From positions 254 through 64,253 of the forward strand of contig JBAQLU010000202.1 of the NCBI GenBank assembly GCA_049302065.1: a DNA stretch of 64,000 nt, read 5' to 3'. Every line of letters starts with the position of its first letter. Position 1 is the stretch's first letter. Both the position numbers and the translations under genes were made by a program. Below the pieces are notes generated by a model. It saw nothing but the letters and a program-made list of their open reading frames with translations. It did no database searches and was not told where the DNA came from. This stretch comes from Thermodesulfovibrionales bacterium (GTDB taxonomy: Bacteria > Nitrospirota > Thermodesulfovibrionia > Thermodesulfovibrionales > SM23-35). Positions 3,854 to 29,700 of the stretch are shown here, one piece after another.

Positions 3854-3860
3854 TAATTTT

Positions 3861-3901: not shown

Positions 3902-3983
3902 TTAGCAGTATATTACTCAGCTTAAAATTGTTTCGTCAACTTAACCTTTTGATTTAGTTGGCTTATTTCGCTTAATCCCCATC

Positions 3984-3999
3984 TGGTATTTTTTTTGCT
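3984..3999 (+). promoter_or_regulatory. Sigma54 (-24/-12) promoter
   Basis: TGGTAT-TTTTT-TTGCT, with GG-N10-GC spacing exact. Intergenic and oriented toward the mrp/apbC-like gene. The conserved positions match the site at 8898. Confidence 0.6.
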
Positions 4000-4039
4000 T
4001 TATTCGGAGAGATACATATGTGATTCCCTGTATTCCTGT

Positions 4040-4135
4040 CGCAGGGATCCCATTTAGTACCTCCCCCTTGATGGAGAAACGAGGGATAGAGGACCGGTTG
4101 TTCAGTTTTCCCCCTCCTCTATCACCTCCCCTCAA
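4040..4135. repeat. C-run/G-run hairpin-rich repeat in the 5' UTR of the mrp-like gene
   Basis: CCCCC/GGGG-type segments (ctcccccttgatgg..., ttttccccctcctctatcacctcccctcaaggg) related to elements at 5371, 12739 and 61758. Track ORF 3941..4135 (-) is just a translation of this repeat. Confidence 0.35.
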
Positions 4136-4207
4136 GGGCGGTAGTGTATTATCAATATGCCTTGAGCCTGCTGAAGGATATAAAAATAAATAGTAAGGAG
4201 CTATGCA

Positions 4208-5098
4208 ATGGACAACGTTAGTGAAGGAAAAGAAGCCGCGAACATTTGTTCGTCAAAAAAACGTATCAGCAAGGATGATATCGAGGAACTTAAAGAGAAG
4301 CTTATGCTTGAGCAAAACCTTTGCGATGTAGACCATAAGATAATGGTCATGTCAGGTAAAGGCGGAGTAGGCAAGAGTTCTATTGCCGCGAATATCGCTG
4401 TCGGTCTTTCCCTGAAAGGGAAACAGGTCGGACTCATGGACATTGATATCCACGGACCGAGTATCCCGAAGATGGTCGGGCTTGAAGGGACACCGCTGAA
4501 ACAGTCTGAGGAAGGAATGATGCCTGTTGAATACAGCAATAATCTGAAAGTCATGTCTATCGGATTCCTGATCCGCGACAAGAAAGATGCGGTCATATGG
4601 AGGGCGCCGCTCAAGCACAGCATCATCAGGCAGTTTTTGACCGATGTCAGATGGGGAGATCTCGATTATCTTATTATTGATTGCCCGCCTGGGACCGGAG
4701 ACGAACTCATTTCGATAGCCCAGCTCCTTGAAGGAGCAGATGGCGCCGTTATTGTGACCACTCCTCAGGATGTTGCGCTCAACGATGTCAGGAAATCAAT
4801 TTCTTTCTGCCGTCACGTTGAGGTGCCTATTATCGGCGTAATAGAAAATATGAGCGGTTTTGTCTGTCCGCATTGCGGTATGTCTACTGATATTTTCAAA
4901 ACGGGCGGGGGAGAAAAAATGGCTTCGGAAATGGAAGTCCCTTTTTTGGGAAGGATACCGATCGACGCGAAAATAGTCGAACACAGTGATAGCGGAAGAC
5001 CTTTCTTACAATATGTTTCCGACTCTGAAACAGCGAAGGCGTTTGAATCCGTCATAGGCCCTCTTTTAAACCTGAACAAAGAGAAGGAGAGAAAATAA
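4208..5098 (+). CDS. Mrp/NBP35/ApbC-family Fe-S cluster carrier ATPase
   Basis: Deviant Walker A VMSGKGGVGKSS, DCPPGTGDE, and the CPHCG cluster-ligand motif. AAGGAG SD 7 nt upstream. Confidence 0.9.
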   Translation: MDNVSEGKEAANICSSKKRISKDDIEELKEKLMLEQNLCDVDHKIMVMSGKGGVGKSSIAANIAVGLSLKGKQVGLMDIDIHGPSIPKMVGLEGTPLKQSEEGMMPVEYSNNLKVMSIGFLIRDKKDAVIWRAPLKHSIIRQFLTDVRWGDLDYLIIDCPPGTGDELISIAQLLEGADGAVIVTTPQDVALNDVRKSISFCRHVEVPIIGVIENMSGFVCPHCGMSTDIFKTGGGEKMASEMEVPFLGRIPIDAKIVEHSDSGRPFLQYVSDSETAKAFESVIGPLLNLNKEKERK

Positions 5099-5099: not shown

Positions 5100-5348
5100 G
5101 TGCCGATCTATGAATATCTTTGTGATGACTGCGGCAGGCGATTCGAGATAAACCAGTCGATGCGCGATCTTCCGATTGAAATATGTCCTGAATGCAAGGG
5201 AACTGTACGGAGGATCATTTCAGGAGGAAGCGGCTTTATTTTAAAGAGCCCCGGTTCCGAACCCCCTCTTCAGCCGCGCTGCGGGAAGAGCGAAACCTGC
5301 TGTGGCAGCAAAACACCCTGTGAGACGCCTTCCTGTGAATCCGGATAA
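5100..5348 (+). CDS. FmdB-family zinc-ribbon protein
   Basis: MPIYEYLCDDCGRRFE...CPECKG is the family signature. Cys-rich C-terminal tail. GTG start 1 nt after the mrp stop. Confidence 0.8.
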   Translation: MPIYEYLCDDCGRRFEINQSMRDLPIEICPECKGTVRRIISGGSGFILKSPGSEPPLQPRCGKSETCCGSKTPCETPSCESG

Positions 5349-5856: not shown

Positions 5857-6545
5857 ATGAAAGAACTTATTCCCGTCGAAATAATCGAGAAAAAATCTAT
5901 CTGATTCGAGGCCACAAGGTCATGCTTGACAGCGATCTTGCCGAACTTTACGGCGTGGAAACGAAGCGACTCAATGAACAGGTTCACAGGAATCTAAAGC
6001 GATTTCCGGATGATTTCATGTTTCAGCTTACAGAGGAAGAAGCGGAATCTCTAAGGTCGCATTTTGCGACCTTAAAAAGCGGCAGGGGAAGACATCGAAA
6101 ATACTTACCCTATGCTTTTACCGAGCAGGGCGTTTCTATGCTCTCAAGTGTGTTGAACAGCGATCTGGCAATTGAGGTAAATGTCCAGATCATACGGACG
6201 TTTGTGAAGCTCCGCGAGATGCTGGAGCTTTTTAATCAATTCAGAGAGCGGGTCTTGAATCTCGATTCTTCCGTAACCGAGGAAATCCTGAAGCTTTATA
6301 TAGCGTACAAATCCTCAACGAACTTTGTTGATGTTGTGCCCCAGAAAAGCAGGTTGAGGCTCTCTATCAATATGCGTTTCAGCGAGATGGACGACCCGAA
6401 GGGTCTGTGCAAGGATGTGACGAATCTTGGCAGCTGGGGTAATGGAGACGTGGAGGACGGCCTCAGTTCAGCGGAGCAACTTGACGATGTAATGTATCTC
6501 GTTACTCAGTCGTTTGAGAAGAATCTGGATAATGAGGGGCAGTGA
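5857..6545 (+). pseudogene. Frameshifted, chimeric ORF6N (KilA-N-like) / DUF5655-like gene remnant
   Basis: ATG at 5857 gives MKELIPVEIIEKK, then a stop. The family sequence continues as IYLIRGHKVMLDSDLAELYGV in the next frame. The break is an A6 run (5890-5895) where A7 would restore the frame. The C-terminal half (YIAYKSSTNFVDVVPQKSRLRLSINM...DPKGL...WGNGD) resembles DUF5655 rather than an ORF6N C-terminus. Confidence 0.7.
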
Positions 6546-6762
6546 GGTTGATGAGAGGGGGAATTAAGTGATTGGAAAATGCAGAATGCAAGAAACAAGA
6601 CTTGACCCCACGCGTGCGTGGTGATAATCGATATAACAAATGTCATTGGAATCTCAGAGGTAAATGCTGAACAATGGGTGAATAGTCTGAAAGAAGCAGG
6701 TAAGCTTAAAGAAAGGCAATATAAGGAGAAAAAATATTATTCATGCCCTTTGGGGCGATAAA

Positions 6763-7512
6763 ATGGGAGGTATGAAGTCTGAAAGGTATGCAATCTTGAA
6801 TATGAAAATAACAGTCATATATGACAATAACTCTTATAAGGCAGGATTAGACGCCTCATGGGGTTTTTCCTGTTTTATAGAGGGAACTGAGAAAACTATA
6901 CTTTTTGATACCGGCAGTAACCCTTTTTTACTTTTGAGGAATATAAAGTGTTTGAAAATCGATCCTGGAGATATTGATTTGATTTTTCTTTCCCATATGC
7001 ATTGGGATCATATAGGTGGATTATATGGAATTATTGAAAATAACCCTGCTGTTACTGTTTTTCTGTTAGAATCTTTTTCCAAACGATATAAAGATGATAT
7101 TAAGAAATTTGGAACAAAAATATTTGAAGCCGGAAAACCTGTTAGAATCTGCAAGGATGTTTTTTCTACCGGTGAATTAGGGAAATCGATAAAAGAGCAA
7201 TCCTTGATTGTCCATACGAACAGAGGTTCAGTAGTGATAACCGGATGTGCGCATCCAGGCATTGTAACAATAATAAAAAAGGCAAAAGACATTATTAAGG
7301 ATGAAATATTATTGGTAATTGGTGGTTTTCATTTAGGAGCCGAAACTAAAATGGAAAAGATTGTCTCAAATATTAGGAAATTGGGTGTCCGATATGTCGG
7401 TCCCTGTCATTGTACAGGAGATAATGCAAAACAATTGTTCCAAAGAGTATATGGTGAAAATTCTATCCATGTAGGCGCAGGAAAAGTAATAAACATAAAT
7501 GATTTGAAATGA
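6763..7512 (+). CDS. MBL-fold metallo-hydrolase
   Basis: SHMHWDHIGG (HxHxDH) with later conserved His/Cys residues. The start is uncertain; MKITVIYDN at 6802 is an alternative. Confidence 0.8.
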   Translation: MGGMKSERYAILNMKITVIYDNNSYKAGLDASWGFSCFIEGTEKTILFDTGSNPFLLLRNIKCLKIDPGDIDLIFLSHMHWDHIGGLYGIIENNPAVTVFLLESFSKRYKDDIKKFGTKIFEAGKPVRICKDVFSTGELGKSIKEQSLIVHTNRGSVVITGCAHPGIVTIIKKAKDIIKDEILLVIGGFHLGAETKMEKIVSNIRKLGVRYVGPCHCTGDNAKQLFQRVYGENSIHVGAGKVININDLK

Positions 7513-7719
7513 AAACCTTGAATGAGATAGAAGATGGTATGAGTAACGGTAATCCTTGACGGTTTAGATGTGAGACAGCATTTTCATATTCTACAAACAA
7601 TCTTTCATAAACCAGAGGAAATAACCGCTTTGGAGCCTATAAGAGATGGATACGGAGAGGGCCTTTTTGTTGTACTTTCTGCTCAAAAAGAAGAAACAAT
7701 TTCAAGGAGGTAGTTCAAG

Positions 7720-8712
7720 TTGGTAAAGGACATCATCACGAAATCGTTAGACAGAAACATGCTCACCAAAGAAGAGATTGCTTTATTATTTAAGGTTCCC
7801 CTGTTCTCTGAAGAATCGGCGATGATCATTGCAGCATCCCGAAAAAAGAGCGAGTCAGCAAGCAGCGGGTTAGCTGAAGTTCATGCACAGGTGGGATTAA
7901 ATATAGCCCCATGTCCCAAGAACTGTGCTTTCTGTTCTTTCGCAGTCAGAAATAAGGTTTTCACTGAAAAGATTGAGATTTCGGTCGATGAAGCTGTTCA
8001 AAAAGCACAGCAGTTCGAAACCGATGGAGCAAATGCTGTTTTTGTTATGAGCACAGCGGATTATCCATTTGAAAAGTTTATCGATATTTCCCAGGAAATC
8101 AGAAAATCTCTTCATTCAGAAACAATACTTGTTGCAAATGTCGGTGATTTCACCAAAGAACAGGCAAGAAAATTGAAAGATACCGGGTTCTCTGGCATTT
8201 ATCATGCTGTTCGACTGGGCGAAGGAAAAGATACGAACATCCAGGTTGAAACAAGGCTGGAGACATTTAGAAATGCAAGAGAAGTCGGTTTGTCATTAGG
8301 AACGTGTGTAGAACCGGTTGGGAATGAACACAGCGTTGAGGAGTTAGTCGAAAAAACGATCATCACCCGTGATGCGAAACCTGTATACAGTGGTTCAGCA
8401 AGACGCATACCCATCCCTAATACCCAAATGGCGGAATACGGCATTGTCAGCGAGGCCAGGATGGCGCATATACTTGCTGTTGTGAGATTGGCGCTTGGAT
8501 ATGATATCCCAGGGAACTGTACTCATGAACCTAATGTCATAGGAGCAGCAGCCGGAGCGAATCTCTTGTGGGCTGAGGCTGGATCTAACCCCCGTGATAC
8601 GGAGAAGGAAACGGAAGGCAAACGTGGCATGACTGTAAGGGATTGTATGAAAGTATTAGAAGAAGCAGAATGGAAGGCGCTACAAGGTCCGTCAAAATTT
8701 TATGGAGCATAG
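7720..8712 (+). CDS. Radical SAM protein (BioB/HydE-like subgroup)
   Basis: CPKNCAFCSF (CxxxCxxC) near residue 65 and a TIM-barrel-length body. TTG start with an AAGGAGG SD 9 nt upstream. Confidence 0.8.
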   Translation: MVKDIITKSLDRNMLTKEEIALLFKVPLFSEESAMIIAASRKKSESASSGLAEVHAQVGLNIAPCPKNCAFCSFAVRNKVFTEKIEISVDEAVQKAQQFETDGANAVFVMSTADYPFEKFIDISQEIRKSLHSETILVANVGDFTKEQARKLKDTGFSGIYHAVRLGEGKDTNIQVETRLETFRNAREVGLSLGTCVEPVGNEHSVEELVEKTIITRDAKPVYSGSARRIPIPNTQMAEYGIVSEARMAHILAVVRLALGYDIPGNCTHEPNVIGAAAGANLLWAEAGSNPRDTEKETEGKRGMTVRDCMKVLEEAEWKALQGPSKFYGA

Positions 8713-8779
8713 ATTCTTTATTACAATAGCTAATCATCTCACCCTTACTTTTTAAATAATCGCACGTCAGGTTTATTGT

Positions 8780-8816
8780 GATATTGCATTCTATATTTGC
8801 AATACATTGCAAATAT
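8780..8816. promoter_or_regulatory. Putative enhancer (UAS): 24-bp perfect palindrome plus a half-site
   Basis: ATATTTGCAAT-AC-ATTGCAAATAT at 8793-8816 (11-2-11, perfect), preceded by the half-site ATATTGCAT (8781-8789). The centre lies about 95 bp upstream of the -24 GG at 8899. Confidence 0.55.
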
Positions 8817-8897
8817 GCAGTAGGTGATTTTTTATCCGCAAACATCCTCTATACGCTAACGTTTTGATTAATCTGCATATTTCAAATTATTCCTTCC

Positions 8898-8913
8898 TGG
8901 TATATTGTTTGCT
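8898..8913 (+). promoter_or_regulatory. Sigma54 (-24/-12) promoter
   Basis: TGGTAT-ATTGT-TTGCT with exact GG-N10-GC spacing, intergenic. The predicted TSS (about 8923-8926) falls almost on the ATG at 8928, so the mRNA would be nearly leaderless. Confidence 0.6.
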
Positions 8914-8927
8914 TTATGTATTTTGTT

Positions 8928-9293
8928 ATGAAAATAGCCATCCCAATATTCGAAAACAGGATTTCTCCACGGTTTGATTGTGCTCCGGGTTTCAGATTAT
9001 GCGAAATGGAAGGAGACAGGATAACGGGTATCCATGAGATATCCTGTGAGGGATGGAATGATATGGACAGGGTTTCCCGATTAAAGGTACTGGGAATTGA
9101 TACCCTTATTTGCGGTGGTATTCCGGATTATCTGCTCAGCGTCCTTGCGAACAGCGGTATCAAGGTTATCCCCTGGGTAGCGGGCGATACCAGCGAGGCA
9201 TTAACCCTTTTTCTCCGGGGGCAATTGAACTCGGGTACGGTCATCTGCCCGGGAAGGAAAAGACGCCGCTGCAAGAGAGGCATAAAGGTTTAG
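8928..9293 (+). CDS. NifX/NifB-C-terminal-family (FeMo-cofactor-binding fold) protein 1
   Basis: MKIAIPIFENRISPRFDCAPGF is a typical N-terminus for the family. The track start at 8916 adds 4 aa and is less likely. Confidence 0.75.
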   Translation: MKIAIPIFENRISPRFDCAPGFRLCEMEGDRITGIHEISCEGWNDMDRVSRLKVLGIDTLICGGIPDYLLSVLANSGIKVIPWVAGDTSEALTLFLRGQLNSGTVICPGRKRRRCKRGIKV

Positions 9294-9352
9294 ATGGATT
9301 TGATTGAGTTGAGGATTAAAACTGTGAAGCAGAAGAAAGAAGGTGGACAGAA

Positions 9353-9721
9353 ATGAAACTCTGTATTAGTTCTACGGGAAGTGGTCTGGAGTCAACGGTT
9401 GACCCCAGATTTGGAAGGTGTCGGTACTTTCTTTTGATTGACACCGAAACGATGAATGTCGAGACTGTGGGAAATCCCGCTTTTATAGCAGGCGGCGGAG
9501 CAGGGATACAGGCTGCCCAGTTGGTAGTTAATAAAGGGGCAAAAGTGGTTCTCACCGGAGATGTCGGACCGAATGCCTTTCAGGCCCTTCAAGCCGGCGG
9601 TGTAAAGATAGTTACAGGCGCTCAGGGTTCGGTCAAAGATGTAATTGAAAGATTTAACAAAGGTGAACTCGGGTATGCCGGAGCCGCTTCAGTTGAATCG
9701 CACGCCGGGATGAGGAGGTGA
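9353..9721 (+). CDS. NifX/NifB-C-terminal-family protein 2
   Basis: MKLCISSTG...VDPRFGRCRYFLLID...VVLTGDVGPNA are typical family blocks. Confidence 0.8.
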   Translation: MKLCISSTGSGLESTVDPRFGRCRYFLLIDTETMNVETVGNPAFIAGGGAGIQAAQLVVNKGAKVVLTGDVGPNAFQALQAGGVKIVTGAQGSVKDVIERFNKGELGYAGAASVESHAGMRR

Positions 9722-9726
9722 AGACT

Positions 9727-9942
9727 ATGCCGAGAGGAACTGGATCAGGATCAACGAATGCAGGAACTGGAATGGGATCGGGTAAGGGAAGGTGTGGAGG
9801 AGGAAGGGGAGGCAGCAGGTCCGGCGGTCCCGGAGGTGAATGCATCTGCCTCTCCTGCGGAGCGACAGCAATCCACCAGGCAGGCACTCCCTGTTATCAG
9901 GTGAAATGCCCCAAGTGTGGGGTAAGTATGGCAAGGAAATAA
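9727..9942 (+). CDS. DUF5320-family small Gly/Cys-rich protein
   Basis: MPRGTGSGSTNAGTGMGSGKGRCGGGRGG, then CICLSCG...CPKCG. GGAGG SD 8 nt upstream of the ATG at 9727. Confidence 0.7.
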   Translation: MPRGTGSGSTNAGTGMGSGKGRCGGGRGGSRSGGPGGECICLSCGATAIHQAGTPCYQVKCPKCGVSMARK

Positions 9943-9956
9943 GGAGACCGTCTTTT

Positions 9957-10835
9957 ATGATTATCTCAATTGCGAGCGGAAAAGGAGGAACGGGCAAGAC
10001 TACCTTAACCGCTGCATTCGCCCATCTTGCCGATAATGCCATGATTGCTGATTGCGACGTTGATGCAGCCGACCTTCATCTTATACTGACACCGGATATC
10101 ATCAGACAGGAGCCATTTTACGGAGGCCAACTGCCTTCTATTGATTATGATCGATGCACCCAGTGCGGGTTATGTGAACAACAATGCCGTTTTGGAGCCA
10201 TCCAGGCTGTAAAGGTCGATCCTGTCTCCTGCGAAGGTTGCGGGGTCTGTGCTTACGTTTGTCCTGAACAGGCCATATCCATGAAGGAAAGACTTTCCGG
10301 CAACTGGTTTTTATCTGAAACAAGAGAAGGCTGGATGGTTCACGCACGGCTGGGAATAGCAGCGGAAAATTCCGGGAAGCTTGTCTCCATGGTCCGTCAG
10401 CAGGCGAAGGAACTGGCTGAAAAGGAGAAGAAGAATCTCGTTATCATTGACGGTCCGCCCGGCATTGGTTGTCCGGTAATAGCCTCAATAGGCGGTGTAA
10501 ACCTTGTTCTTGTTGTGACAGAGCCGACCCTTTCGGGAATCCACGATTTAAAAAGGATTCTCGAAGTAGCAACCCATTTTAATATCCCGGCGATGGTATG
10601 CGTCAATAAATGTGATATCAATGCTGAAAATACCCTCGCCATAGAAGGTTATTGTGCGGGAAAAGGGATTGCTATAGCAGGCAGCATCCCATATGCACCG
10701 GAAGTAACCAAGGCTATGCTGAACGGGCTCTCCGTAGTGGAATATCCCTGTGCTCAAGTGACCGTCGAAGTGAAAAGGATATGGAGAAAGGTTGAAGAGT
10801 ATCTTTTTGCCGAGTCGCATAATCTTTTCGCTTGA
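9957..10835 (+). CDS. MinD/ParA-type P-loop ATPase with inserted 2x[4Fe-4S] ferredoxin domain
   Basis: IASGKGGTGKTT Walker A, plus CTQCGLCEQQC and CEGCGVCAYVCP ferredoxin motifs. The in-frame ATG at 9957 has an AAGGAGA SD. The track extension back to 9840 overlaps the DUF5320 gene. Confidence 0.85.
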   Translation: MIISIASGKGGTGKTTLTAAFAHLADNAMIADCDVDAADLHLILTPDIIRQEPFYGGQLPSIDYDRCTQCGLCEQQCRFGAIQAVKVDPVSCEGCGVCAYVCPEQAISMKERLSGNWFLSETREGWMVHARLGIAAENSGKLVSMVRQQAKELAEKEKKNLVIIDGPPGIGCPVIASIGGVNLVLVVTEPTLSGIHDLKRILEVATHFNIPAMVCVNKCDINAENTLAIEGYCAGKGIAIAGSIPYAPEVTKAMLNGLSVVEYPCAQVTVEVKRIWRKVEEYLFAESHNLFA

Positions 10836-10866
10836 TTTATTATGAGCTTATGCTCATAATAAACAA
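10832..10866 (+). promoter_or_regulatory. Sigma70-type promoter (TTGATT-N17-CATAAT) with an embedded 28-bp palindromic operator; predicted leaderless transcript
   Basis: -35 at 10832-10837 and -10 at 10855-10860. The ATG at 10866 has no SD. Perfect palindrome TTTATTATGAGC-TTAT-GCTCATAATAAA spans 10836-10863. Confidence 0.55.
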
Positions 10867-11156
10867 TGCCTCGGCCAAAAAAATTCAGATGTGTGAAGTG
10901 CAAACCAGATACTAATTATTTCAAACCAAGGGGAATTCCCCTGATAGAACTTGAGGAAGTCTCGATCTCAATGGATGAACTGGAGGCGCTCAGGCTTGCA
11001 GATTATGAAGAATTCTATCATGAAGAAGCCGCTGCAAATATGAAGATATCAAGGCAGACATTCGGAAGAATCTTGAATGCTGCACACAAAAAAGTTGCTG
11101 AATGTCTGTTAAAGGGCAAGGCATTGAAAATAGAGACTCAAAAAAAGGAGGAATAA
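10866..11156 (+). CDS. DUF134-family predicted DNA-binding protein
   Basis: N-terminus MPRPKKFRCVKCKPDTNYFKPRGIP, followed by an HTH-like ELEALRLADYEEFYHEEAAANMKISRQTFGRIL. Confidence 0.8.
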   Translation: MPRPKKFRCVKCKPDTNYFKPRGIPLIELEEVSISMDELEALRLADYEEFYHEEAAANMKISRQTFGRILNAAHKKVAECLLKGKALKIETQKKEE

Positions 11157-11158
11157 AG

Positions 11159-11539
11159 ATGAAAATATGTTTTCCGGTATCAAAAGTTAATGGGATGGAG
11201 AGCGAGGTTTACGGTCATTTCGGATCAGCGCCCGCATTCCTTGTTATCGAGACGGATGCTAACACCATAACAACAATTAATAACAAAGACCAGCATCATG
11301 TACACGGCGCGTGTAATCCAATGAAAGCCCTGAACAATCAGAACGTCGATGCAATCGTAGTTGGCGGAATCGGTGCAGGTGCATTGAGCAAGCTGAATCA
11401 ATTAGGGATTAAGGTTTTTCAGGCAAAGGCGTCAACTATTAAGGAAAATATTGCGATATTAAAGAATCAGAGCCTGCCTGAATTTTCAACATCACACTGT
11501 TGTTCAGGTCATAGCAAAATCGGTGGCTGTGGACATTAA
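11159..11539 (+). CDS. NifX/NifB-C-terminal-family protein 3
   Basis: MKICFPV...VYGHFGSAPAFLVIE...AIVVGGIGAGA. AAGGAGG SD upstream of the in-frame ATG at 11159. Confidence 0.8.
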   Translation: MKICFPVSKVNGMESEVYGHFGSAPAFLVIETDANTITTINNKDQHHVHGACNPMKALNNQNVDAIVVGGIGAGALSKLNQLGIKVFQAKASTIKENIAILKNQSLPEFSTSHCCSGHSKIGGCGH

Positions 11540-11563
11540 AATTTACCTCAGCAACTTTGTTAT

Positions 11564-11626
11564 TCCTGGAAAGCAGGAATCCAGAAAAAAGAAAAAACTG
11601 GATTCCGCATCAAGTGCGGAATGACA
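11564..11626. repeat. Intergenic hairpin repeat of the GGATTCCG...CGGAATGAC family
   Basis: CTGGAaagcaggaaTCCAG, then GGATTCCGCATCAAGTGCGGAATGAC. Related copies at 14572-14652 and 60544-60619. Confidence 0.6.
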
Positions 11627-11684
11627 AACTTGATCATTCATCTGAGCTTTACAGTATTACATAATAAATAAAAAGGAGGATTTT

Positions 11685-12056
11685 ATGGCAAAGAAAAGAA
11701 TTGCAATACTCGCATGCAAAAACATCAAGGGTATCAGTTGCGTAGCCGGCTGTCTGAAATGTTTTAAGGGCATTTCCGAGAAGGCGGGGGAATACGAGCG
11801 CTGGAAGGATTATGATATAGAAGTCATTGGCATGGATGACTGTGGCGGTTGTCCTGGTATCCTCATGCCGAAAGTTGCACTAATGATGGATATGGGTAAA
11901 TTATATGAAAGGGATTTTGATGCTATTCATCTTGGAACTTGTGTTATGAAGGCTACCCAGACTGCAAAGTGCCCCATTGATGTTGAAGATATTAAGAAAA
12001 AGATTGAAACAAAGTTTAAGAAAGAGGTGATCTTCGGCACGCATCCTTATGCGTAG
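11685..12056 (+). CDS. CGGC-domain protein
   Basis: DDCGGCPG motif plus N-terminal Cys residues. AAGGAGG SD. Confidence 0.75.
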   Translation: MAKKRIAILACKNIKGISCVAGCLKCFKGISEKAGEYERWKDYDIEVIGMDDCGGCPGILMPKVALMMDMGKLYERDFDAIHLGTCVMKATQTAKCPIDVEDIKKKIETKFKKEVIFGTHPYA

Positions 12057-12090: not shown

Positions 12091-12546
12091 ATGAGCATTT
12101 TAGTCTTCGGCATAGGTAACTTACTGCGCTCTGACGATGGAGTGGGTTTGCAGGTAATTGGAGCTCTCGGGGAGGAAAAGTTAGGAGATACTATTGATGT
12201 AATAGAAGGGTCTTCCTGTATCGATATCCTCGATGCATTAAAAGGTTACAGGAGAATCATTATTGTTGATGCGATACAGACCGGAGGTGAGCCTGGTACA
12301 ATCTATAAATTTTCCCTGGAAGATTTTAAAGATAAGCATACGATCCATTCTTACTCAACCCACCTGAATATGGATTTCCCCACTATGCTCGAATTGAGGG
12401 AAAAACTCTTTCCCGGTGAAATACCCTTAGATATCATAGTTATCGCAATAGAGGCAGAGGACATAACAACGATTTCGGATACCTGCACACCAAAGGTTCG
12501 GAAAGCTATACCAGAAGCTGTTGATATGATTAAGGGATTGATATAA
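12091..12546 (+). CDS. Hydrogenase maturation endopeptidase (HyaD/HybD/FrhD family)
   Basis: ILVFGIGNLLRSDDGVG N-terminal signature, IIIVDA and a downstream His. No hydrogenase structural gene in the window. Confidence 0.8.
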   Translation: MSILVFGIGNLLRSDDGVGLQVIGALGEEKLGDTIDVIEGSSCIDILDALKGYRRIIIVDAIQTGGEPGTIYKFSLEDFKDKHTIHSYSTHLNMDFPTMLELREKLFPGEIPLDIIVIAIEAEDITTISDTCTPKVRKAIPEAVDMIKGLI

Positions 12547-14548
12547 CGAGTTTATATAATTTCGGATATTCGTCTTTTGCAAGATATATATCTTCTTTTA
12601 AAAGCCTTACCCCCTCAGGCACATATTTCAAAAAATACTTCTTGCCTTTTGCAGAGGATAGAAAACCATATGCACCGAGTGCCTGCATATGACGCTGCAG
12701 GCGGCAAGGAAGTATGGATTCTCTGAATTCATTTTCAGTAATCCCCCTTAGTCCCCCTTTAGTAAATGGGGATTGAAGGGGATTTTGTGAGGCCGCATCC
12801 CCCTCAGCATTCAGAATAACATTCCCCCCCTTTTCTAAAGGGGGGGGAGGGGGGATTACTTGTTTAAGATAATAATCCAAAAGCCTTTCTCTCATATCAT
12901 CATTAAGGCGAAAATATGGATCCCATAAGAGTGAGACAACATCATAGGCTGGCGGGCCGATTCTTGCCCCCTGATAATCTATTATTCGTGGATTCCCTCC
13001 CTTTGTAATCATGATATTCTGTGACTGAAAATCACGGTGTATTACCGTCCTATGAAAAGAGTCGACCTTTTCAGCAAGTTTGTGGAAATCATCATTGAGT
13101 AAAAGCTCATTTGCTATTTTAATGTTTCTGATACCCCTGATAAATCTCTCAACAAAATAGCCTGTCTCCCATCTGAGATGTTCATAATCAAATATTCTCT
13201 TCCGGAGCAGAGGGCACTCTGATATATGTTCAGTCACTTCTGTGTGTATTAGGATGAGGATATCAATAACCTTTTTGTACATCTTTTCTATCATTCCCCG
13301 GTCTCGTGGACATTTCAGCCAGCTGTATAAAGAGAGATCACCAAAGTCTTCAAATAATGCGGTCTTGTTATCGGATGATATATCGATTAATTCAGGGACA
13401 GGAATAGAATGCCCTCTGAAGAAGTGTGTGTATTCAATATGCCTCTGAAAATCAGGATCTCCATCAGGAGACTGCATAAGCACTACTGAGTGTTTGTCGA
13501 GCTTGACCCTGGAATATTTCCTGTCAGATCCTCCTGTGCCAATGAGGAAAGAATTGCCTTCAGCTGAATCAAACAAATCTGACTCGCCGAGATCAATCTT
13601 GAATCCGGGACCGAGGATGCAGTTTTCGTAAAATTGCCCTTTATATGGATCAGGTCCTGTCCCCTGGAATGAAGTTAAAAAACATTGAGGAGTCTTGTCA
13701 TCCTGCCCCATTTTTGCGATCTCGGTTCCAGGCAGTACAATACAATTTCTCAGCGAAATGCCTTGACCTAATCTGCTGCCATTTTCAATAACCACATAGC
13801 CATCCATCTCAATATGCCCGCAGCCTTTTGCTGTTGGATGTATATAGACCATCTCGCCATTCCTTCTGAGTTCATTGATGACTGCTTTGGTATACGAAGA
13901 TGGTGTCCCGATGTCAGTCCAGTAACATCCACTTACATGAAATGTCCCGACTGTACCGCCTGCAGTTACAGCTTTCAACCAGGCATCTGTTACACTGGAA
14001 ACACCGGATGGGAGGAATCGGAGGAATTCCGGCTGGTAAACAGCTATGCCGGTAAAGGCCAAATTCTTTTTTTCCCCTGATGATGAGCTAAAACCTCTGA
14101 AGAAACCTCTTTCATCTATCGCAAGTTTATTAAATTCAGGATAATCATGCACAGCAAGGGTTACAAGATTATGGGATGTCAAATGAAAATCAATCAATTG
14201 CTGCAAATCAATATCAGAGACAATGTCTGCATTATGTACAAGGAACGTGCCGTCTTTGAGAAAATCCTCAGCATTTTTTAAAGCGCCACCTGTTCCGAGG
14301 ACAGGGTCTTCGGGAAAGAGTCTAATCTTATTACTGAATGCTGACTGCCTTATCCACTGCCTGATTGCCTCTTTTTTGTAATGAAGATTGACTCCTATTG
14401 ATGTGACAGGCAGTGCGGATATTTTTTTGAGGACGGATTCGAGCACAGGTTTCCCGAGAACCGGAAGTAATGGCTTCGGGATATTATTTGTGATCGGACG
14501 CAGCCTTTCCCCAAGTCCGGCAGCCAAAATGAATACTGAAAGGTTCAA
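12530..14548 (-). CDS. Bifunctional sugar-1-phosphate nucleotidyltransferase / anomeric sugar kinase (MurU/AmgK-like fusion), carrying an in-frame repeat insertion
   Basis: N-terminal ILAAGLGERLRPITNNIPKPLLPV (NTP-transferase), a central hexapeptide-like segment, and a C-terminal APH-type kinase (HRDFQSQNIMI, IDYQGARIGPPAYD). Adjacent to a DUF1343/NamZ-like gene. Confidence 0.65.
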   Translation of the reverse strand: MNLSVFILAAGLGERLRPITNNIPKPLLPVLGKPVLESVLKKISALPVTSIGVNLHYKKEAIRQWIRQSAFSNKIRLFPEDPVLGTGGALKNAEDFLKDGTFLVHNADIVSDIDLQQLIDFHLTSHNLVTLAVHDYPEFNKLAIDERGFFRGFSSSSGEKKNLAFTGIAVYQPEFLRFLPSGVSSVTDAWLKAVTAGGTVGTFHVSGCYWTDIGTPSSYTKAVINELRRNGEMVYIHPTAKGCGHIEMDGYVVIENGSRLGQGISLRNCIVLPGTEIAKMGQDDKTPQCFLTSFQGTGPDPYKGQFYENCILGPGFKIDLGESDLFDSAEGNSFLIGTGGSDRKYSRVKLDKHSVVLMQSPDGDPDFQRHIEYTHFFRGHSIPVPELIDISSDNKTALFEDFGDLSLYSWLKCPRDRGMIEKMYKKVIDILILIHTEVTEHISECPLLRKRIFDYEHLRWETGYFVERFIRGIRNIKIANELLLNDDFHKLAEKVDSFHRTVIHRDFQSQNIMITKGGNPRIIDYQGARIGPPAYDVVSLLWDPYFRLNDDMRERLLDYYLKQVIPPPPPLEKGGNVILNAEGDAASQNPLQSPFTKGGLRGITENEFRESILPCRLQRHMQALGAYGFLSSAKGKKYFLKYVPEGVRLLKEDIYLAKDEYPKLYKLVISIP
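12739..12858. repeat. 120-bp MITE-like element with 9-bp terminal inverted repeats, inserted in-frame in the kinase domain
   Basis: TAATCCCCC (12739-12747) and GGGGGATTA (12850-12858), with internal C-run/G-run hairpins. It translates to ...PPPPPLEKGGNVILNAEGDAASQNPLQSPFTKGGLRGI... Confidence 0.6.
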
Positions 14549-14571
14549 TGGTAATTCCTTTGCTGTTTTAC

Positions 14572-14652
14572 GTCATTCCGACTTATTCGGAATCTTTTTC
14601 TATATTTCCAGTGTAGCAATGAAGAAGGATTCCGGACAAGCTGGAATGACGG
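14572..14652. repeat. About 80-bp MITE-like repeat bounded by GTCATTCCG ... GGAATGAC
   Basis: GTCATTCCGACTTATTCGGAATC ... GGATTCCGGACAAGCTGGAATGAC. Same architecture as 60544-60619. Confidence 0.6.
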
Positions 14653-14676
14653 CTACACAAGATTTAACAATTCATT

Positions 14677-15870
14677 TTATTTGTACATCAAATATTTTTT
14701 TCTATACTGCTTATTGAATTGTAAACACTCTTCCTGCCACCATGCTTCCATCTTATCAAGTTTTTCACCTTTTTCTATATCTTTTCTCAGTCTGTCTGTT
14801 CCTGCGAGGATGTCAATTGGCATCTTCTCATGTTCATATTCGTACGGCGGTTGTTTCCATACAAAGTGCTCTGGATAAAGGTCATGAACAGCTTTAAGGA
14901 CAGCTACTCCGGTTTTAAATGGTTTAAATTTTCCCCTGTGAGTAACGTGGATCTGCGCTCCCCCGCACAATGTGACGGCGTGTTTCTGAAAGGTAGGCTG
15001 GAAATACATCGGCCTGAAAACAAGACCGGGAAGCTTGCATTCCTTAAGATGTCTTACAAGTCTGTCTGGCTCTATAAAAGGAGCGCCGAATATTTCAAAC
15101 GGCTTTGTGGTGCCTCTTCCTTCGCTGAGGTTCGTGCCTTCAAGCAGGCACATACCAGGATATACCAGAGAAGTATCAAGTGTCGGCATATTCGGTGAGG
15201 GCATGACCCAGGGGAGACCGGTTTCATCAAACCAGGTTTTTCTCTTCCAGCCCCGCATAGGAATGACATGAAAATCCAGAGACGGGTAAAATTCATTCCT
15301 CAGATAATTGCCAATTTCTCCGATTGTCATCCCATGCCGGACAGGAAGAGGACGCTGTCCGACAAATGAAGCAAAAGCCATATCTAAAACAGGGCCCTCT
15401 GTAAGATGACCGTTAATGGGATTCGGCCTGTCGATAATTATTACAGATTTGTTCATTTCCATGCATGCCTGCATGCAGAGTTCCATCGTCCATATGAATG
15501 TATAATAGCGCGAGCCGGCATCCTGCATATCTATCACCAGTACATCAATGTCTTTCAGCATAGATGGTCCAGGTTTGCGGGCATGACCATAGAGGCTGAA
15601 TACGGGAAGTCCTGTTTTTGTGTCACGAAAACCCTCCCATTCAATCATGTTGTCCTGTGTCTCACCACGGATGCCATGCTGTGGCCCGAAGAGCGCCTTT
15701 AATTTAAATTTATTAGATTTAATAAACAGGGGGACAGCGTGTTCGAGATTCTTATTAACAGACGCGGGATGAACAAGAAGACCGACCCGTGAGCCCTTTA
15801 ATTTTTTCGGCCATTTTTTATCGATTAAATCAAGTCCGATTCGAACTGCTAAATCAGCCATTTTGCTCAA
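14677..15870 (-). CDS. DUF1343 family protein (NamZ-type exo-beta-N-acetylmuramidase family)
   Basis: 397 aa. Blocks VGLLVHPASV, LFGPQHGIRG and DMQDAGSRYYTF are typical of DUF1343. Confidence 0.75.
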   Translation of the reverse strand: MSKMADLAVRIGLDLIDKKWPKKLKGSRVGLLVHPASVNKNLEHAVPLFIKSNKFKLKALFGPQHGIRGETQDNMIEWEGFRDTKTGLPVFSLYGHARKPGPSMLKDIDVLVIDMQDAGSRYYTFIWTMELCMQACMEMNKSVIIIDRPNPINGHLTEGPVLDMAFASFVGQRPLPVRHGMTIGEIGNYLRNEFYPSLDFHVIPMRGWKRKTWFDETGLPWVMPSPNMPTLDTSLVYPGMCLLEGTNLSEGRGTTKPFEIFGAPFIEPDRLVRHLKECKLPGLVFRPMYFQPTFQKHAVTLCGGAQIHVTHRGKFKPFKTGVAVLKAVHDLYPEHFVWKQPPYEYEHEKMPIDILAGTDRLRKDIEKGEKLDKMEAWWQEECLQFNKQYRKKYLMYK

Positions 15871-16342
15871 TTACATAACTTACCTTAATATCCATATCTT
15901 TTCGCAATGAGTGATAAACAGAGCAATATTTTTCCTGAGAAAGTGAGATTGCCCGGTCAAGCTTTTTGGGAGTTATGCCTTTGCCTGCAATGCGGATTTT
16001 CATATCAACGCCACTGAAATATTTCGGCGGGACAGGATTTCTCTCTCCGATGGTTTCGATCTCGAATTTTGTTATCTCAACCTTCATCTTCTTCAGAAAT
16101 AAAACTACATCTATGGCGAGGCAACCCGGAATGCTCATCAAAAGGCTGTCAGTCGGGATGCACCCCTCCTTTGCATCAGCATCGAAGTCAATTGCATAAC
16201 CGCGGATCCTTGCAGTGAAGACCAGGTCCTTCTCCCAGGTTAAAATTCCTCTGCTAATATTGGCGACATTTTCCTTGTATCCCTCTCCCTTTAGGGTTTT
16301 GTCCAAACCGGTAAGGGAACCTTCAGCTTCCTTTTCCTGCAT
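15854..16342 (-). CDS. OsmC/Ohr-family peroxiredoxin-like protein
   Basis: 162 aa with the OsmC fold pattern and Cys residues in EGCIPTD, PGCLAIDV and EKYCSVYHSL. Confidence 0.75.
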   Translation of the reverse strand: MQEKEAEGSLTGLDKTLKGEGYKENVANISRGILTWEKDLVFTARIRGYAIDFDADAKEGCIPTDSLLMSIPGCLAIDVVLFLKKMKVEITKFEIETIGERNPVPPKYFSGVDMKIRIAGKGITPKKLDRAISLSQEKYCSVYHSLRKDMDIKVSYVIEQNG

Positions 16343-16366
16343 ATTGTTTATTCTCCTTTAGTTTAC

Positions 16367-17125
16367 TTAAGGAATTGTATCAATTGAGGCAAACTTGGGT
16401 TCATGAAGCGGCAAGAGAATATCTGCCATATTTTTCACTTTAAGCACGATATCGTAAGCATCATATACATTGACATGAGTTCCGGGAGGTATTACTTCCA
16501 TCTCCATTGCCTTTATCTTTGGAGGCGGATTGAAATTTTCCATGATTAGACAGAAGCCTGTTATAGCAGCTTTCCCCTGTTCGGTGTCTATGAGGACTGT
16601 CATGCCACCTTCAGTATGTGCAGGGGTGTGAATCATTTTAATGCCGGGAAGGATTTCCGTATCCCCTGTGAGCTTTTTTATCTGACCTTTTTTTTCCACA
16701 TCTGTAATAAAATCTTCGTTGTAGCGGAAATCCAGCGGATGGGGATTATGTATTCTCTCCAGTTCTTTTTCATGGACATAGAATGTAGCGTTAATGCATT
16801 TATCATCGTTTTCACAATGGTCGTTATGTAAATGGGTATGTATAACAATATCGATATCTTCAGGCTTCAATCCCCATCGGCTCAACCCTTCCTCAAACTT
16901 GTAAATTTTTCCGCCGATTCCTTCCTCCCTGTCCCTGGTCTGCATTGGCGCCATTTCTCCTGTATCAACCAGTATTTTCTTGTCACCGCCCTCGAGATAC
17001 CAGCAATAGATGGGTATGGTATAAGGTTTTCCATAGTCATGCTGGTATGTCATCATGCCTTTATCAAAAGCCTTTGTCCCCATAACTATAGGATGTATTT
17101 TGTAGGTCTTAGCTTGCAAATTCAT
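16367..17125 (-). CDS. MBL-fold hydrolase (N-acyl-homoserine-lactonase-like subgroup)
   Basis: HTHLHNDHCEN (HxHxDH), plus later HTPAHTEG and a conserved Asp/His. Confidence 0.75.
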   Translation of the reverse strand: MNLQAKTYKIHPIVMGTKAFDKGMMTYQHDYGKPYTIPIYCWYLEGGDKKILVDTGEMAPMQTRDREEGIGGKIYKFEEGLSRWGLKPEDIDIVIHTHLHNDHCENDDKCINATFYVHEKELERIHNPHPLDFRYNEDFITDVEKKGQIKKLTGDTEILPGIKMIHTPAHTEGGMTVLIDTEQGKAAITGFCLIMENFNPPPKIKAMEMEVIPPGTHVNVYDAYDIVLKVKNMADILLPLHEPKFASIDTIP

Positions 17126-17137
17126 TGTCTTCTCTCC

Positions 17138-19542: not shown

Positions 19543-19556
19543 TGCAGGAGTGAGAA

Positions 19557-20231: not shown

Positions 20232-20256
20232 TTTTAAATTATGGAGGATTATATAG

Positions 20257-29696: not shown

Positions 29697-29700
29697 TCAA

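Follow-up and report, generated by a model that had tools for sequence, protein, structure and literature searches.

An orp ("orange protein") gene cluster of Thermodesulfovibrionales with putative OrpR-type sigma54 regulation

The seven-gene set located between positions 8916 and 12056 of the 64-kb stretch of DNA analyzed here (the window) is the Thermodesulfovibrionales version of the orp or "orange protein" (ORP) system known from work on Desulfovibrio. That system is specific to anaerobes and redox-switched, comprises proteins that bind iron-sulfur and metal-sulfide clusters, and is partly understood in its regulation and biochemistry. The best reading of the locus is that of a redox-gated, ATP-dependent carrier complex for Fe-S or metal-sulfide clusters and, taken whole, the combination of an orp locus, OrpR-type sigma54 regulation and an ATP-gated cluster holder/dispenser provides the best explanation, to which we assign a probability of about 0.85. 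Directly observed are the gene content, the homology to ORP, MrpORP and OrpR, the architecture of the promoters and the co-conservation of the genes. All seven open reading frames are co-oriented on the + strand, with spacing that ranges from a 4-nt overlap to 59-nt gaps, the exception being the 145 nt ahead of the CGGC gene. In agreement with an initial sequence-only reading, their products are three NifX/"Di-Nase"-fold proteins, a peptide with Gly and Cys, a MinD-type ATPase into which a 2x[4Fe-4S] segment is inserted, and one protein each of the DUF134 and CGGC types, and Pfam matches were obtained for every product except the peptide. The metallocluster role proposed in that reading is also the most reasonable one for this gene set. 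The claim that no experimental work exists, on the other hand, does not hold. For the Desulfovibrio vulgaris orp system, an Orp3/4/5/8/9 complex, control by OrpR, sigma54 and IHF, and Fe-S transfer from MrpORP to Orp3/4 have been published (PMC6345978, PMC8359166, PMC3897727), as have the redox-sensing [4Fe-4S] PAS domain of OrpR and the Mo-Cu-S cluster of ORP (PMC6345978, PMC8359166, PMC3897727, PMC4641369). The label "functionally undefined" is thus half right, because the Desulfovibrio authors themselves call the cellular role unclear (PMC8359166), but it overlooks the published part of the regulation and biochemistry.

Gene-neighborhood analysis encompassed 80 related loci from many bacterial and archaeal phyla, in which genes up to 5 kb from the ATPase were considered near and those at 5-10 kb far. 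The core of the set is found again in these loci, in line with its suggested recurrence in anaerobes, and consists of a tandem ATPase pair (75/80), NifX-like genes (71/80), Mrp (38/80) and the peptide (33/80), the density of which within 5 kb is 5-12 times that at 5-10 kb. The closest relative of D. gigas ORP is encoded in a locus with the gene order DUF134, an unannotated 112-aa gene, ORP, two ATPases, NifX and a zinc ribbon.

Regulation by sigma54, also anticipated from the sequence, is supported by a promoter, a cognate activator and a common upstream palindrome. Only two sigma54-like -24/-12 sites occur in the 64 kb (0.23 expected by chance), one ahead of each of two operons: TGGTATTTTTTTTGCT (3984-3999, + strand), preceding the mrp/zinc-ribbon operon and with TGGCATCTTCCTTGCT (L083) and TGGCACCTTTTTTGCT (L087) as equivalents in related loci, and TGGTATATTGTTTGCT (8898-8913, + strand), preceding the orp operon. 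The two 160-bp promoter regions align almost gap-free, with palindrome, IHF-like and -24/-12 blocks in common, and a TGGTAT-N5-TTGCT module is present in both. Upstream of the orp operon, the perfect 11+11 palindrome ATATTTGCAAT-AC-ATTGCAAATAT (8793-8816), kept in L083, L085 and L086, is a candidate activator-binding site. Its TTGCAA-N3-ATTGCA core (8797-8811) is shared with the candidate upstream activating sequence of the mrp operon (3860-3899, + strand), which harbors TTGCA repeats and TTGCAAGACATTGCA at 3885-3899, and each copy lies ~95 bp from its -24 element. A putative IHF site upstream of mrp, AATCAAAAGGTTA (WATCARNNNNTTR; 3942-3954, - strand), is a consensus match read from the sequence and aligns with its equivalent in the second promoter and in relatives; the second, AATCAAAACGTTA (8857-8869, - strand), differs by one base across three genomes. 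Region 8757-8930 as a whole is ~94% identical to that of two relatives, the ATPase proteins of which are 75-77% identical.

The presumed activator of both promoters is an OrpR-like enhancer-binding protein (2516-3853, + strand; Pfam PAS_9, Sigma54_activat with E 6e-71, and HTH_8). Its PAS domain carries the motif C50-x-D52-x6-C59-x3-C63, and a GAFTDA loop is present as well; both the Cys triad with an acidic residue and the GAFTDA variant match those of OrpR (C52/E-D54/C61/C65 and GAFTDA; PMC8359166, PMC4641369). The same PAS Cys motif was identified in 14 of the 16 top-scoring activators adjoining orp-like clusters elsewhere. The candidate activator site does not have the sequence of the OrpR site of D. 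vulgaris, GGGCGYRTTTTGCGCCC (PMC8359166), which counts against the orp reading.

The first gene of the upstream operon encodes an Mrp/NBP35 Fe-S carrier of the MrpORP type (4208-5098, + strand) with a CPHC (CXXC) motif. It matches the NCBIfam MrpORP model NF041136 with 399.9 bits over profile positions 3-257 of 365, the P-loop part, as compared with 242 bits for ApbC; the score is nevertheless below the MrpORP cut-off of 450 bits and the fused C-terminal Di-Nase domain is absent, which also counts against the orp reading. The ~200-nt mrp leader (4000-4207, + strand) displays conserved hairpins with 6 pairs changing on both sides among 4 sequences, a weak indication of a conserved RNA structure, and a search of Rfam returned no family match for it. 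The second gene encodes an FmdB-type zinc-ribbon protein with a Cys-rich tail (5100-5348, + strand; Pfam Zn_ribbon_8 E 5e-16; TIGR02605), a family that yields 5.3 near versus 1.1 far hits per 100 kb around orp-like clusters.

Within the orp operon, the MinD-type ATPase (9957-10835, + strand; Pfam CbiA/MinD plus two Fer4 motifs) is of the Orp3/Orp4 type. From its likely start at 9957, within an ORF spanning 9840-10835, it comprises 292 aa, identical to NCBI protein P0001, and presents a deviant Walker A (GKGGTGKT) and two CxxCxxCxxxC motifs. The 5' flank and approximately the first 17 codons of the gene match paralogue A of its relatives and the remainder matches paralogue B. The single ATPase is hence a chimera of A and B, the two members of the usual tandem pair, with the junction inside the Walker-A codons, and stems either from a real deletion or from assembly collapse in the MAG. 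The presence of one ATPase instead of the Orp3/Orp4 pair speaks against the orp reading, and the chimera may be an assembly artefact. The sequence-only reading had noticed neither the chimeric nature of the lone ATPase nor the activator 5 kb upstream, nor that Mrp belongs to the system.

The AF2 model of the ATPase has a core closest to MinD (1HYQ), FlhG and FleN, followed by NifH, and ends in a long C-terminal helix; the PDB contains no structure of a MinD-type ATPase into which such a 2x[4Fe-4S] ferredoxin domain is inserted. The predicted features of the model would fit a system for positioning the septum or polar structures, with the MinD-like ATPases as spatial regulators at the membrane and the metal clusters confined to redox sensing. 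In D. vulgaris, cells that have lost OrpR are morphologically defective, MrpORP has a polar location and the C-terminus of Orp3/4 is amphipathic as in MinD (PMC6345978, PMC8359166). Yet the conserved genes are mostly cluster-binding modules (NifX-fold, Mrp, Cys-rich peptides, CGGC), no MinC, MinE or other division genes were seen among annotated neighbors in the window and in those loci of relatives that were looked up, and the D. vulgaris authors still term the role unclear. As the main explanation, positioning therefore seems unlikely, if worth keeping in mind. It is the hypothesis advanced for D. vulgaris and is compatible with the cluster-carrier reading.

All three NifX-like proteins match the Di-Nase part of the NCBIfam MrpORP model. 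The second (9353-9721, + strand; PF02579 E 4e-25) is the orange protein (Orp8) homolog, with D. gigas ORP (PDB 2WFB) as its top PDB match (E 4e-23; 49/108 residues identical, 45%). The third (PF02579 E 2e-21; + strand) probably starts at 11159 in an ORF spanning 11102-11539, is closest in the PDB to TM1816 (1T3V/1O13) and MTH1175, and bears a Cys/His-rich tail (HCCSGHSKIGGCGH), the His/Cys positions of which are kept in L083. The first is divergent (PF02579, or Nitro_FeMo-Co, E 1e-9; + strand), with a likely true start at 8928 in an ORF spanning 8916-9293. It lacks a Shine-Dalgarno sequence and starts ~15 nt past the -12 element, and the predicted transcription start would leave an unusual leader of only ~4 nt, a further point against the orp reading. 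Its C-terminal VICPGRKRRRCKRG is conserved, and its cationic two-Cys tail, with the stretch RKRRRCKRG, is kept in relatives.

The Gly-rich peptide (9727-9942, + strand), the likely ATG of which follows a GAGGAGG Shine-Dalgarno sequence, is usually encoded directly 5' of the ATPases where present. It had been named DUF5320; the 74-aa Gly/Cys peptide does exist, but has no Pfam match even at E<=10. Relatives with a canonical MPRGDGTGP N-terminus match positions 1-39 of DUF5320 only, at 26.1 bits and hence below the cut-off of 27, and present a C4 zinc ribbon in place of the DUF5320 C-terminus; the peptide is therefore DUF5320-related at best. Together with the tail of the first NifX-like protein, it is central to a further explanation, that of a store of iron and sulfide as a thioferrate-type polymer, nucleated by the NifX fold, neutralized by cationic Gly/Arg-rich tails and peptides and mobilized by the ATPase. 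Pyrococcus furiosus IssA, an IPR003731 domain with a cationic Gly-rich tail, rebuilds [4Fe-4S] ferredoxin (PMC5524996), and the conserved RKRRRCKRG tail, the Gly/Arg-rich associated peptides and the Gly/Arg/aromatic-rich classical DUF5320 neighbors may be akin to it in composition. The tail, however, spans ~15 residues rather than 70, the aromatic/Gly pattern is absent and the peptide of the window ends in a C4 zinc ribbon, making such a store quite improbable.

The remaining genes of the operon recur less often. A sigma70-like promoter (TTGATT-17-CATAAT; 10832-10860, + strand), ~80% identical in DNA sequence to the region before a TrmO-like gene at 1916-2030, directly precedes the gene for the putative DNA-binding DUF134 protein (10866-11156, + strand; PF02001 E 1e-23), which lacks a Shine-Dalgarno sequence. 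DUF134 recurs in the same orientation and at most 5 kb away in 10/80 loci, one further instance being the gene beside the closest relative of D. gigas ORP. The CGGC protein (11685-12056, + strand; PF08821 E 1e-22; 8 conserved Cys) is present in 8/80 loci, and its AF2 model (pLDDT 83), an alpha/beta sandwich with four parallel strands, has no significant neighbor in the PDB.

The flanking genes are those initially reported: Mrp, an MBL-fold protein (6763-7512, + strand; Pfam Lactamase_B), a BioB/HydE-like radical SAM gene (7720-8712) and a HycI-type hydrogenase maturation protease (12091-12546, + strand; TIGR00072 E 3e-31). The MBL-fold gene is a recurrent but optional neighbor (same strand within 5 kb in 14/80 loci; 16 near versus 5 far hits). 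As HycI follows the cluster after 34 nt in the same orientation and the radical SAM gene lies just 5' of the promoter region, the cluster could be dedicated to the maturation of a neighboring metalloenzyme, for example a hydrogenase or one with a radical-SAM-dependent cofactor. Nevertheless, in none of the 80 loci is either family encoded within 5 kb of the ATPase (radical SAM has one hit at 5-10 kb, HycI none), both positions are differently occupied in the closest relatives, with HycI missing from its place in L083 and L086, the radical SAM gene sits upstream of the sigma54 promoter and no hydrogenase structural genes were detected among the annotated ORFs of the window. The functional tie first drawn to these neighbors is thus unsupported, HycI adjoining the cluster without being a conserved part of the system, and a dedicated maturation role is highly improbable. 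A remnant or variant of FeMo-co biosynthesis, suggested by the three NifX/NifB C-terminal folds and the weak match of the third protein to NifB (E 0.002), is scarcely credible given that, as first noted, the large ORFs of the 64-kb window include no nitrogenase (nif) genes, that the nearest characterized relatives are ORP, MTH1175 and TM1816 rather than NifX/NafY, and that the set is present in many non-diazotrophic lineages.

Under the cluster-carrier reading, low redox potential would be sensed by a [4Fe-4S] cluster that the OrpR-type activator carries in its PAS domain. The activator would bind the palindrome ~95 bp upstream of the two sigma54 promoters, assisted by IHF-type bending, and switch on mrp with the zinc-ribbon gene, on the one hand, and the two first nifX-like genes, the peptide, the MinD-ferredoxin ATPase, DUF134, the third nifX-like gene and CGGC, on the other. 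Mrp would load [4Fe-4S] clusters onto the ATPase, which may dimerize on ATP as other MinD/NifH-class proteins do and assemble into a complex with the small proteins of the NifX fold. Labile inorganic clusters would be held by these small proteins, Mo/Cu-sulfide in the case of ORP and Fe-S in the rest. Redox sensing, Fe-S transfer and complex formation are here carried over from the Desulfovibrio literature. We infer that the complex, produced solely under reducing conditions, holds or dispenses preformed metal-sulfide clusters in an ATP-gated manner and that the DUF134, CGGC and peptide products may take part in this.

Among known systems, the closest is orp1/orp2 of D. vulgaris Hildenborough (Orp3, Orp4, Orp5, Orp8, Orp9/MrpORP and OrpR), which likewise combines a MinD-like ATPase with two [4Fe-4S] motifs, an ORP homolog (here 45% identical to D. 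gigas ORP), further single-domain Di-Nase proteins, an MrpORP-type Mrp, a sigma54 activator with the PAS Cys triad and GAFTDA, and two sigma54 promoters, each preceded by a palindrome and an IHF-like site. In this Nitrospirota host, however, the operons are co-directional and 5 kb apart, instead of divergent around orpR as in the Desulfobacterota D. vulgaris, a chimeric ATPase replaces the pair, Mrp is not fused to Di-Nase and the palindrome has a different sequence; the genes for DUF134, CGGC, the Gly/Cys zinc-ribbon peptide and the FmdB zinc ribbon would be additional to the D. vulgaris set as described. IssA (PF2025), the iron-sulfur storage protein of P. furiosus, shares a stand-alone IPR003731/NifX-fold domain, an anaerobic host and a cationic C-terminal extension, seen here on one paralog, but the long Gly/aromatic/Arg tail is missing here and sigma54/OrpR regulation takes the place of the sulfur response. 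NifX, NafY and the NifB C-terminal domain belong to the same PF02579 fold family and hold complex metal-sulfide clusters non-covalently or via few ligands, although the nif context is absent here and the sequences are nearer to ORP, MTH1175 and TM1816. Finally, the ATPase shares with the dimeric MinD/ParA-class (SIMIBI) ATPases, such as NifH, CooC, HypB and Mrp/NBP35, the deviant Walker A with its signature lysine and a MinD-like core fold, but differs from them in having a ~60-residue 2x[4Fe-4S] ferredoxin domain inserted past the segment aligned with switch I.

Seven plus-strand open reading frames between 8916 and 12056 make up the gene set of interest. Pfam assigns the Nitro_FeMo-Co domain (PF02579) to 8916-9293, 9353-9721 and 11102-11539, a CbiA/MinD domain with two 4Fe-4S motifs to 9840-10835, DUF134 to 10866-11156 and CGGC to 11685-12056, and the seventh frame (9718-9942) encodes a Gly/Cys-rich product of 74 aa without a Pfam match. 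These assignments, and those of the flanking genes for Mrp (4208-5098), an MBL protein (6763-7512), a radical-SAM protein (7720-8712) and HycI (12091-12546), agree with the sequence-only reading of the region. Judging from the N-termini of homologues, from Shine-Dalgarno sequences and from an NCBI protein of identical sequence, the likely true starts of NifX1, the peptide, the ATPase and NifX3 lie at 8928, 9727, 9957 and 11159, respectively; the NCBI protein, P0001 (292 aa), is identical to the window ATPase.

The lead to the identity of the system is the NCBIfam model MrpORP, part of the orange protein (ORP) complex of Desulfovibrio, which is matched weakly by all three NifX-like proteins and by the ATPase. 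In the Desulfovibrio orp system, Orp3 and Orp4 are MinD-like proteins with two [4Fe-4S] motifs each, Orp5 and Orp8 are single-domain "Di-Nase" proteins, with Orp8 being the orange protein that holds a Mo-Cu-sulfide cluster, and two sigma54 operons are controlled by OrpR and IHF, OrpR sensing redox through a PAS [4Fe-4S] cluster on C52, C61 and C65 (PMC6345978, PMC8359166, PMC3897727, PMC4641369). The proteins of D. vulgaris occur in one complex, in which Orp9 (MrpORP) transfers Fe-S clusters to Orp3/Orp4 (PMC6345978). The cellular role of orp is nonetheless called unclear in this literature, which offers a cell-division hypothesis (PMC6345978, PMC8359166, PMC3897727, PMC4641369).

This identification was tested on the proteins encoded in the window. 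NifX2 (9353-9721) finds its best PDB match in D. gigas ORP (2WFB; E 4e-23, 49/108 residues identical, full length), with which it has no cysteines in common, as fits the non-covalently bound ORP cluster (PMC6345978); NifX3 is nearest to TM1816 and MTH1175 among PDB matches, and NifX1 is divergent. The Mrp protein, through its P-loop part, scores 399.9 bits against MrpORP (NF041136), over profile positions 3-257 of 365, and 242 bits against ApbC. It contains the CPHC (CXXC) motif and lacks the fused Di-Nase domain, which accounts for a score under the 450-bit MrpORP cut-off, and the window carries stand-alone Di-Nase genes instead. The activator encoded at 2516-3853 combines PAS, sigma54-AAA+ and HTH_8 domains, and its PAS domain presents the motif C50-x-D52-x6-C59-x3-C63 together with a GAFTDA loop. 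This cysteine motif is present in 14 of the 16 best-scoring activators adjoining related clusters in other phyla and in none of nine lower-scoring matches. As judged by sequence, the window cluster is an orp system lying outside the Desulfobacterota. The earlier interpretation of a conserved, sigma54-controlled, metallocluster-related gene set stands in these parts, but its novelty was overstated, since the set belongs to a known system that has been studied in Desulfovibrio (PMC6345978, PMC8359166, PMC3897727, PMC4641369).

The extent of the gene set was assessed in 80 loci fetched via alignment of ATPase homologues, on contigs from one genome per species, which include Clostridia, Dehalococcoidia, Acidobacteriota, Planctomycetota, Omnitrophota and Desulfobacterota as well as Methanosarcinales, Bathyarchaeia, Thermoplasmata and Altiarchaeota. 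Profiles built from the window proteins were searched against six-frame ORFs, counting loci with a same-strand match within 5 kb of the ATPase; because many loci are cut by contig ends, the counts are lower bounds. A tandem pair of ferredoxin-ATPases appears in 75/80 loci, at least one NifX-like protein in 71 and at least two in 58, followed by Mrp (38), the Gly/Cys peptide (33), the FmdB zinc ribbon (29; 5100-5348 in the window), MBL (14), DUF134 and the activator (10 each), CGGC (8) and a TrmO-like protein (7), with radical-SAM and HycI genes in 0/80 each. As an internal control, match densities per 100 kb at less than 5 kb from the ATPase were compared with those at 5-10 kb, and were higher for NifX-like proteins (22 vs 1.8), Mrp (5.9 vs 0.9), the peptide (5.4 vs 0.9), the zinc ribbon (5.3 vs 1.1) and CGGC (1.2 vs 0.23). 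Of the relatives of D. gigas ORP that have a contig on record, the closest displays the order DUF134, an unannotated 112-aa gene, ORP, ATPase, ATPase, NifX and zinc ribbon. This gene order and the recurrence across the 80 loci indicate that the gene set is real and ancient, bearing out its description as a conserved set of anaerobes, and the same evidence places Mrp inside the set and the radical-SAM and HycI genes outside it. The ATPase pair, the NifX-fold proteins, the Gly/Cys peptide and Mrp form the core, around which DUF134, CGGC, MBL and TrmO-like genes occur as optional parts; the radical-SAM and HycI genes count as incidental neighbours.

The proposed sigma54 control is likewise upheld at the sequence level by two sites, common upstream blocks and a conserved promoter. 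The relaxed pattern TGGYAY-N5-TTGCW occurs twice in 64 kb against 0.23 occurrences expected by chance, both times as TGGTAT-N5-TTGCT on the plus strand, before mrp (3984-3999) and before NifX1 (8898-8913), and sequence comparison reveals both sites to be conserved in relatives. The strict pattern TGGCAC-N5-TTGCW, with one mismatch allowed, has no match in the window, the two sites deviating from TGGCAC by T as the fourth and sixth base. Both upstream regions align almost without gaps over ~160 bp and have three blocks in common: TTGCA repeats (at 8793-8816 as a perfect 11+11 palindrome, at 3885-3899 as TTGCAAGACATTGCA), a minus-strand match to the IHF-type WATCARNNNNTTR consensus (8857-8869 and 3942-3954), conserved in position and loose in consensus, and the -24/-12 element. 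The same modules are found in relatives. Across three genomes (window 8757-8930 and the related loci L083 7952-8128 and L085 7888-8063) the orp promoter is ~94% identical, whereas the corresponding ATPase proteins are only 75-77% identical, which argues for strong selection on this non-coding module. Conservation of the promoter starts abruptly at TAATCGCACGTCA. The ~200-nt mrp leader (4000-4207) contains, besides a long hairpin, a small conserved one (CCCUGU...GCAGGG), and six pairs have changed on both sides among four related sequences. It may be a cis-regulatory RNA; it matches no Rfam family, and no Rfam family reaches the gathering threshold in the window.

Strong AGGAGG-type sites precede the genes for Mrp, the zinc ribbon, NifX2, the peptide, the ATPase, NifX3 and CGGC, and also the radical-SAM gene. 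NifX1, DUF134 and the TrmO-like gene are devoid of Shine-Dalgarno sequences (around their starts at 8913-8930, 10860-10868 and 1949-1958, respectively), and their starts fall 4-15 nt past a promoter element, so that their messages would be leaderless or almost so. The ATG at 8916, 3 nt past the -12 element and ahead of the predicted transcription start, is unlikely to be used. DUF134, again with no Shine-Dalgarno sequence, has a sigma70-like promoter of its own (10832-10860). It is ~80% identical in DNA to the TrmO-like gene (1956-2519) over 10826-10940 and 1916-2030, a region that takes in a sigma70-like promoter (TTGACT-18-TATAAT in the TrmO-like copy vs TTGATT-17-CATAAT), a small spacer palindrome (GGCATATGCC vs GAGCTTATGCTC) and the first 24 codons (MPRPKK.xC.KCKPD..YFKP). 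TrmO-like genes adjoining orp clusters elsewhere lack the MPRPKK-type N-terminal extension. This likeness suggests a local duplication of promoter plus leader peptide, and the two genes possibly have autoregulation in common.

A local peculiarity of the cluster is its ATPase, the only ferredoxin-ATPase gene within the 64-kb window. Its nearest relatives are 77-92% identical, and in all four relatives examined (L083, L085, L086 and L087) paralogue A (287-296 aa) is followed in tandem by paralogue B (292-294 aa). The window protein begins A-like, with MIISIASGKGG, where all close B homologues begin MKQLTIISGKGG, and is B-like from LTAAFAHLAD onward. The nucleotide sequence follows A through the 5' flank and over the opening ~55 bases of the coding region (~17 codons); across the start of the gene (9943-10020) it passes from A-specific (TCAATTGCGAGC) to B-specific (TTAACCGCTGCATTCGCC) bases, and the switch falls inside a stretch of 26-31 nt, identical in A and B, that encodes the Walker A box. 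This pattern would be explained either by an unequal-crossover deletion of ~870 bp or by a mis-join or collapse in MAG assembly. The exact junction had no matches in JGI metagenome contigs, an uninformative result, and when the chimeric ATPase was looked up as an exact protein, no record turned up. Elsewhere, a Myxococcales MAG (L077) encodes four ferredoxin motifs in one ORF, apparently an A-B fusion, and a Dehalococcoidaceae MAG (L013) has a lone ATPase, flanked by the peptide and a NifX-like gene.

Among the smaller products, the peptide family combines a Gly/Arg-rich N-terminus (MPRGDGTGP), degenerate in the window copy, with a C-terminal CxCPxCG...CPxCG zinc ribbon. Its designation as DUF5320 could be sustained only as an N-terminal resemblance of relatives: Pfam yields nothing for the window peptide even at E<=10, one relative reaches 26.1 bits against PF17253 (cut-off 27), and that only over the N-terminal 39 positions of the profile, and a weak DUF5320 neighbour in the related locus L086, compared directly by BLASTP, shows no similarity to the peptide. 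In NifX3, His/Cys positions are conserved and the tail reads CxGH...CGH, and NifX1 ends in a conserved, cationic tail with two cysteines (VICPGRKRRRCKRG). The CGGC model (pLDDT 83) is a small alpha/beta sandwich with four parallel strands and has no significant neighbour among PDB structures; neither the CGGC nor the DUF134 sequence matches PDB at E<=1, and literature searches turned up no additional studies of the accessory genes.

ORF6N/DUF5655 (phage anti-repressor-like), MBL and BioB/HydE-like radical-SAM genes (5922-8712) separate the mrp/zinc-ribbon and orp operons, a block that looks like an insertion because the two operons are contiguous in the related locus L087. Downstream, at 18286-25729, lies a membrane redox module encoding a beta-propeller protein, a NarI-like membrane protein, an HdrC/DsrK-like Fe-S protein, a multihaem cytochrome c, a 4-cluster ferredoxin and NrfD. 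In every close relative examined, this module comes after the orp cluster; in the window, a ~6-kb block of HycI and minus-strand genes (12091-17400), missing from L083, lies between the two. An OsmC-like gene (15854-16342, 162 aa) has a truncated second copy (17138-17407, an 89-aa ORF), with the stretch ...ANISRGILTWEKDLVFTARIRGYAIDFDADAKEG... in common, which looks like a partial local duplication. Farther on, a GC-rich (~50-54%) island at 29013-42341 carries type I restriction-modification genes (HsdR, HsdS, HsdM), among which Fic, Ser/Thr kinase, Bro-N and YgjP-like genes are interspersed.

By analogy with the Desulfovibrio experiments, the products would form a complex in which Mrp loads the ATPases with [4Fe-4S] clusters, and the activator would work at low redox potential only. 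The complex would then act as an ATP-gated carrier or store of preformed Fe-S or Mo/W/Cu-sulfide clusters, with DUF134 as a putative local regulator and CGGC and the peptide as candidate extra cluster- or zinc-binding partners. A bolder reading sees an ancient, ATP-driven store and dispenser of preformed Fe-S or Mo/W-sulfide clusters in anaerobes, in which Gly/Arg peptides serve as counter-ion scaffolds like the IssA tail; we give it a probability of roughly 0.15. The conserved core it invokes (two MinD-ferredoxin ATPases, 2-3 NifX-fold proteins, the Gly/Arg-rich zinc-ribbon peptide, Mrp and DUF134) ranges from Dehalococcoidia and Planctomycetes to Bathyarchaeia and methanogens, and, if the reading is true, the window genome shows that one homodimeric chimeric ATPase suffices.

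A role in septum positioning, which is compatible with a carrier or store, is unlikely. The window ATPase has the deviant Walker A box with signature lysine (GKGGTGKT) and a MinD-like fold; its predicted core models well, with 1HYQ, 4V03 and 4RZ2 as best structural matches, and is nearest to archaeal MinD, FlhG and FleN, then to NifH-type proteins. A C-terminal helix (267-290) is predicted, and the ferredoxin insert has pLDDT <50, so that the model is silent on its place relative to the dimer interface. No MinC or MinE partners are seen in the window annotation. Thioferrate storage of the IssA type, also compatible with a carrier or store, is rather improbable: IssA bears a long (~70 aa) cationic, Gly/aromatic-rich tail on its IPR003731 domain, while the window has the domain with only a 15-residue tail on NifX1 (RKRRRCKRG). 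Dedicated maturation of a hydrogenase or radical-SAM cofactor would give the HycI and radical-SAM neighbours a functional link to the cluster, which we reject given their absence (0/80 loci each) within 5 kb of the ATPase, and is very improbable. A nitrogenase remnant hardly merits belief, as no nif genes (nifHDK, nifEN, nifB context) are found among the large annotated ORFs of the window, just as had been stated from the sequence.

The orp genes are among the few conserved, anaerobe-specific gene sets with some experimental grounding, and to these the present analysis adds an extension to Nitrospirota, a parts list, a chimeric ATPase and a promoter of unusual conservation whose first gene is almost leaderless. 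The split between core and accessory genes in 80 loci provides a cleaner parts list for reconstitution and flags DUF134, CGGC and the peptide as three unstudied accessory proteins. The regulatory logic of an Fe-S PAS activator, a sigma54 promoter, an IHF-like site and a palindrome would likewise reach beyond the Desulfobacterota into Nitrospirota. Relative to Desulfovibrio, where Orp3 and Orp4 form an ATPase pair, the window has a single gene of that type in 64 kb and, if the chimera is real, would test the need for an Orp3/Orp4 heterodimer. The palindrome of D. vulgaris OrpR, GGGCGYRTTTTGCGCCC, is replaced at the analogous position by a different one, ATATTTGCAAT-AC-ATTGCAAATAT. The cysteine spacing and the GAFTDA loop variant of OrpR are the same in the window activator.
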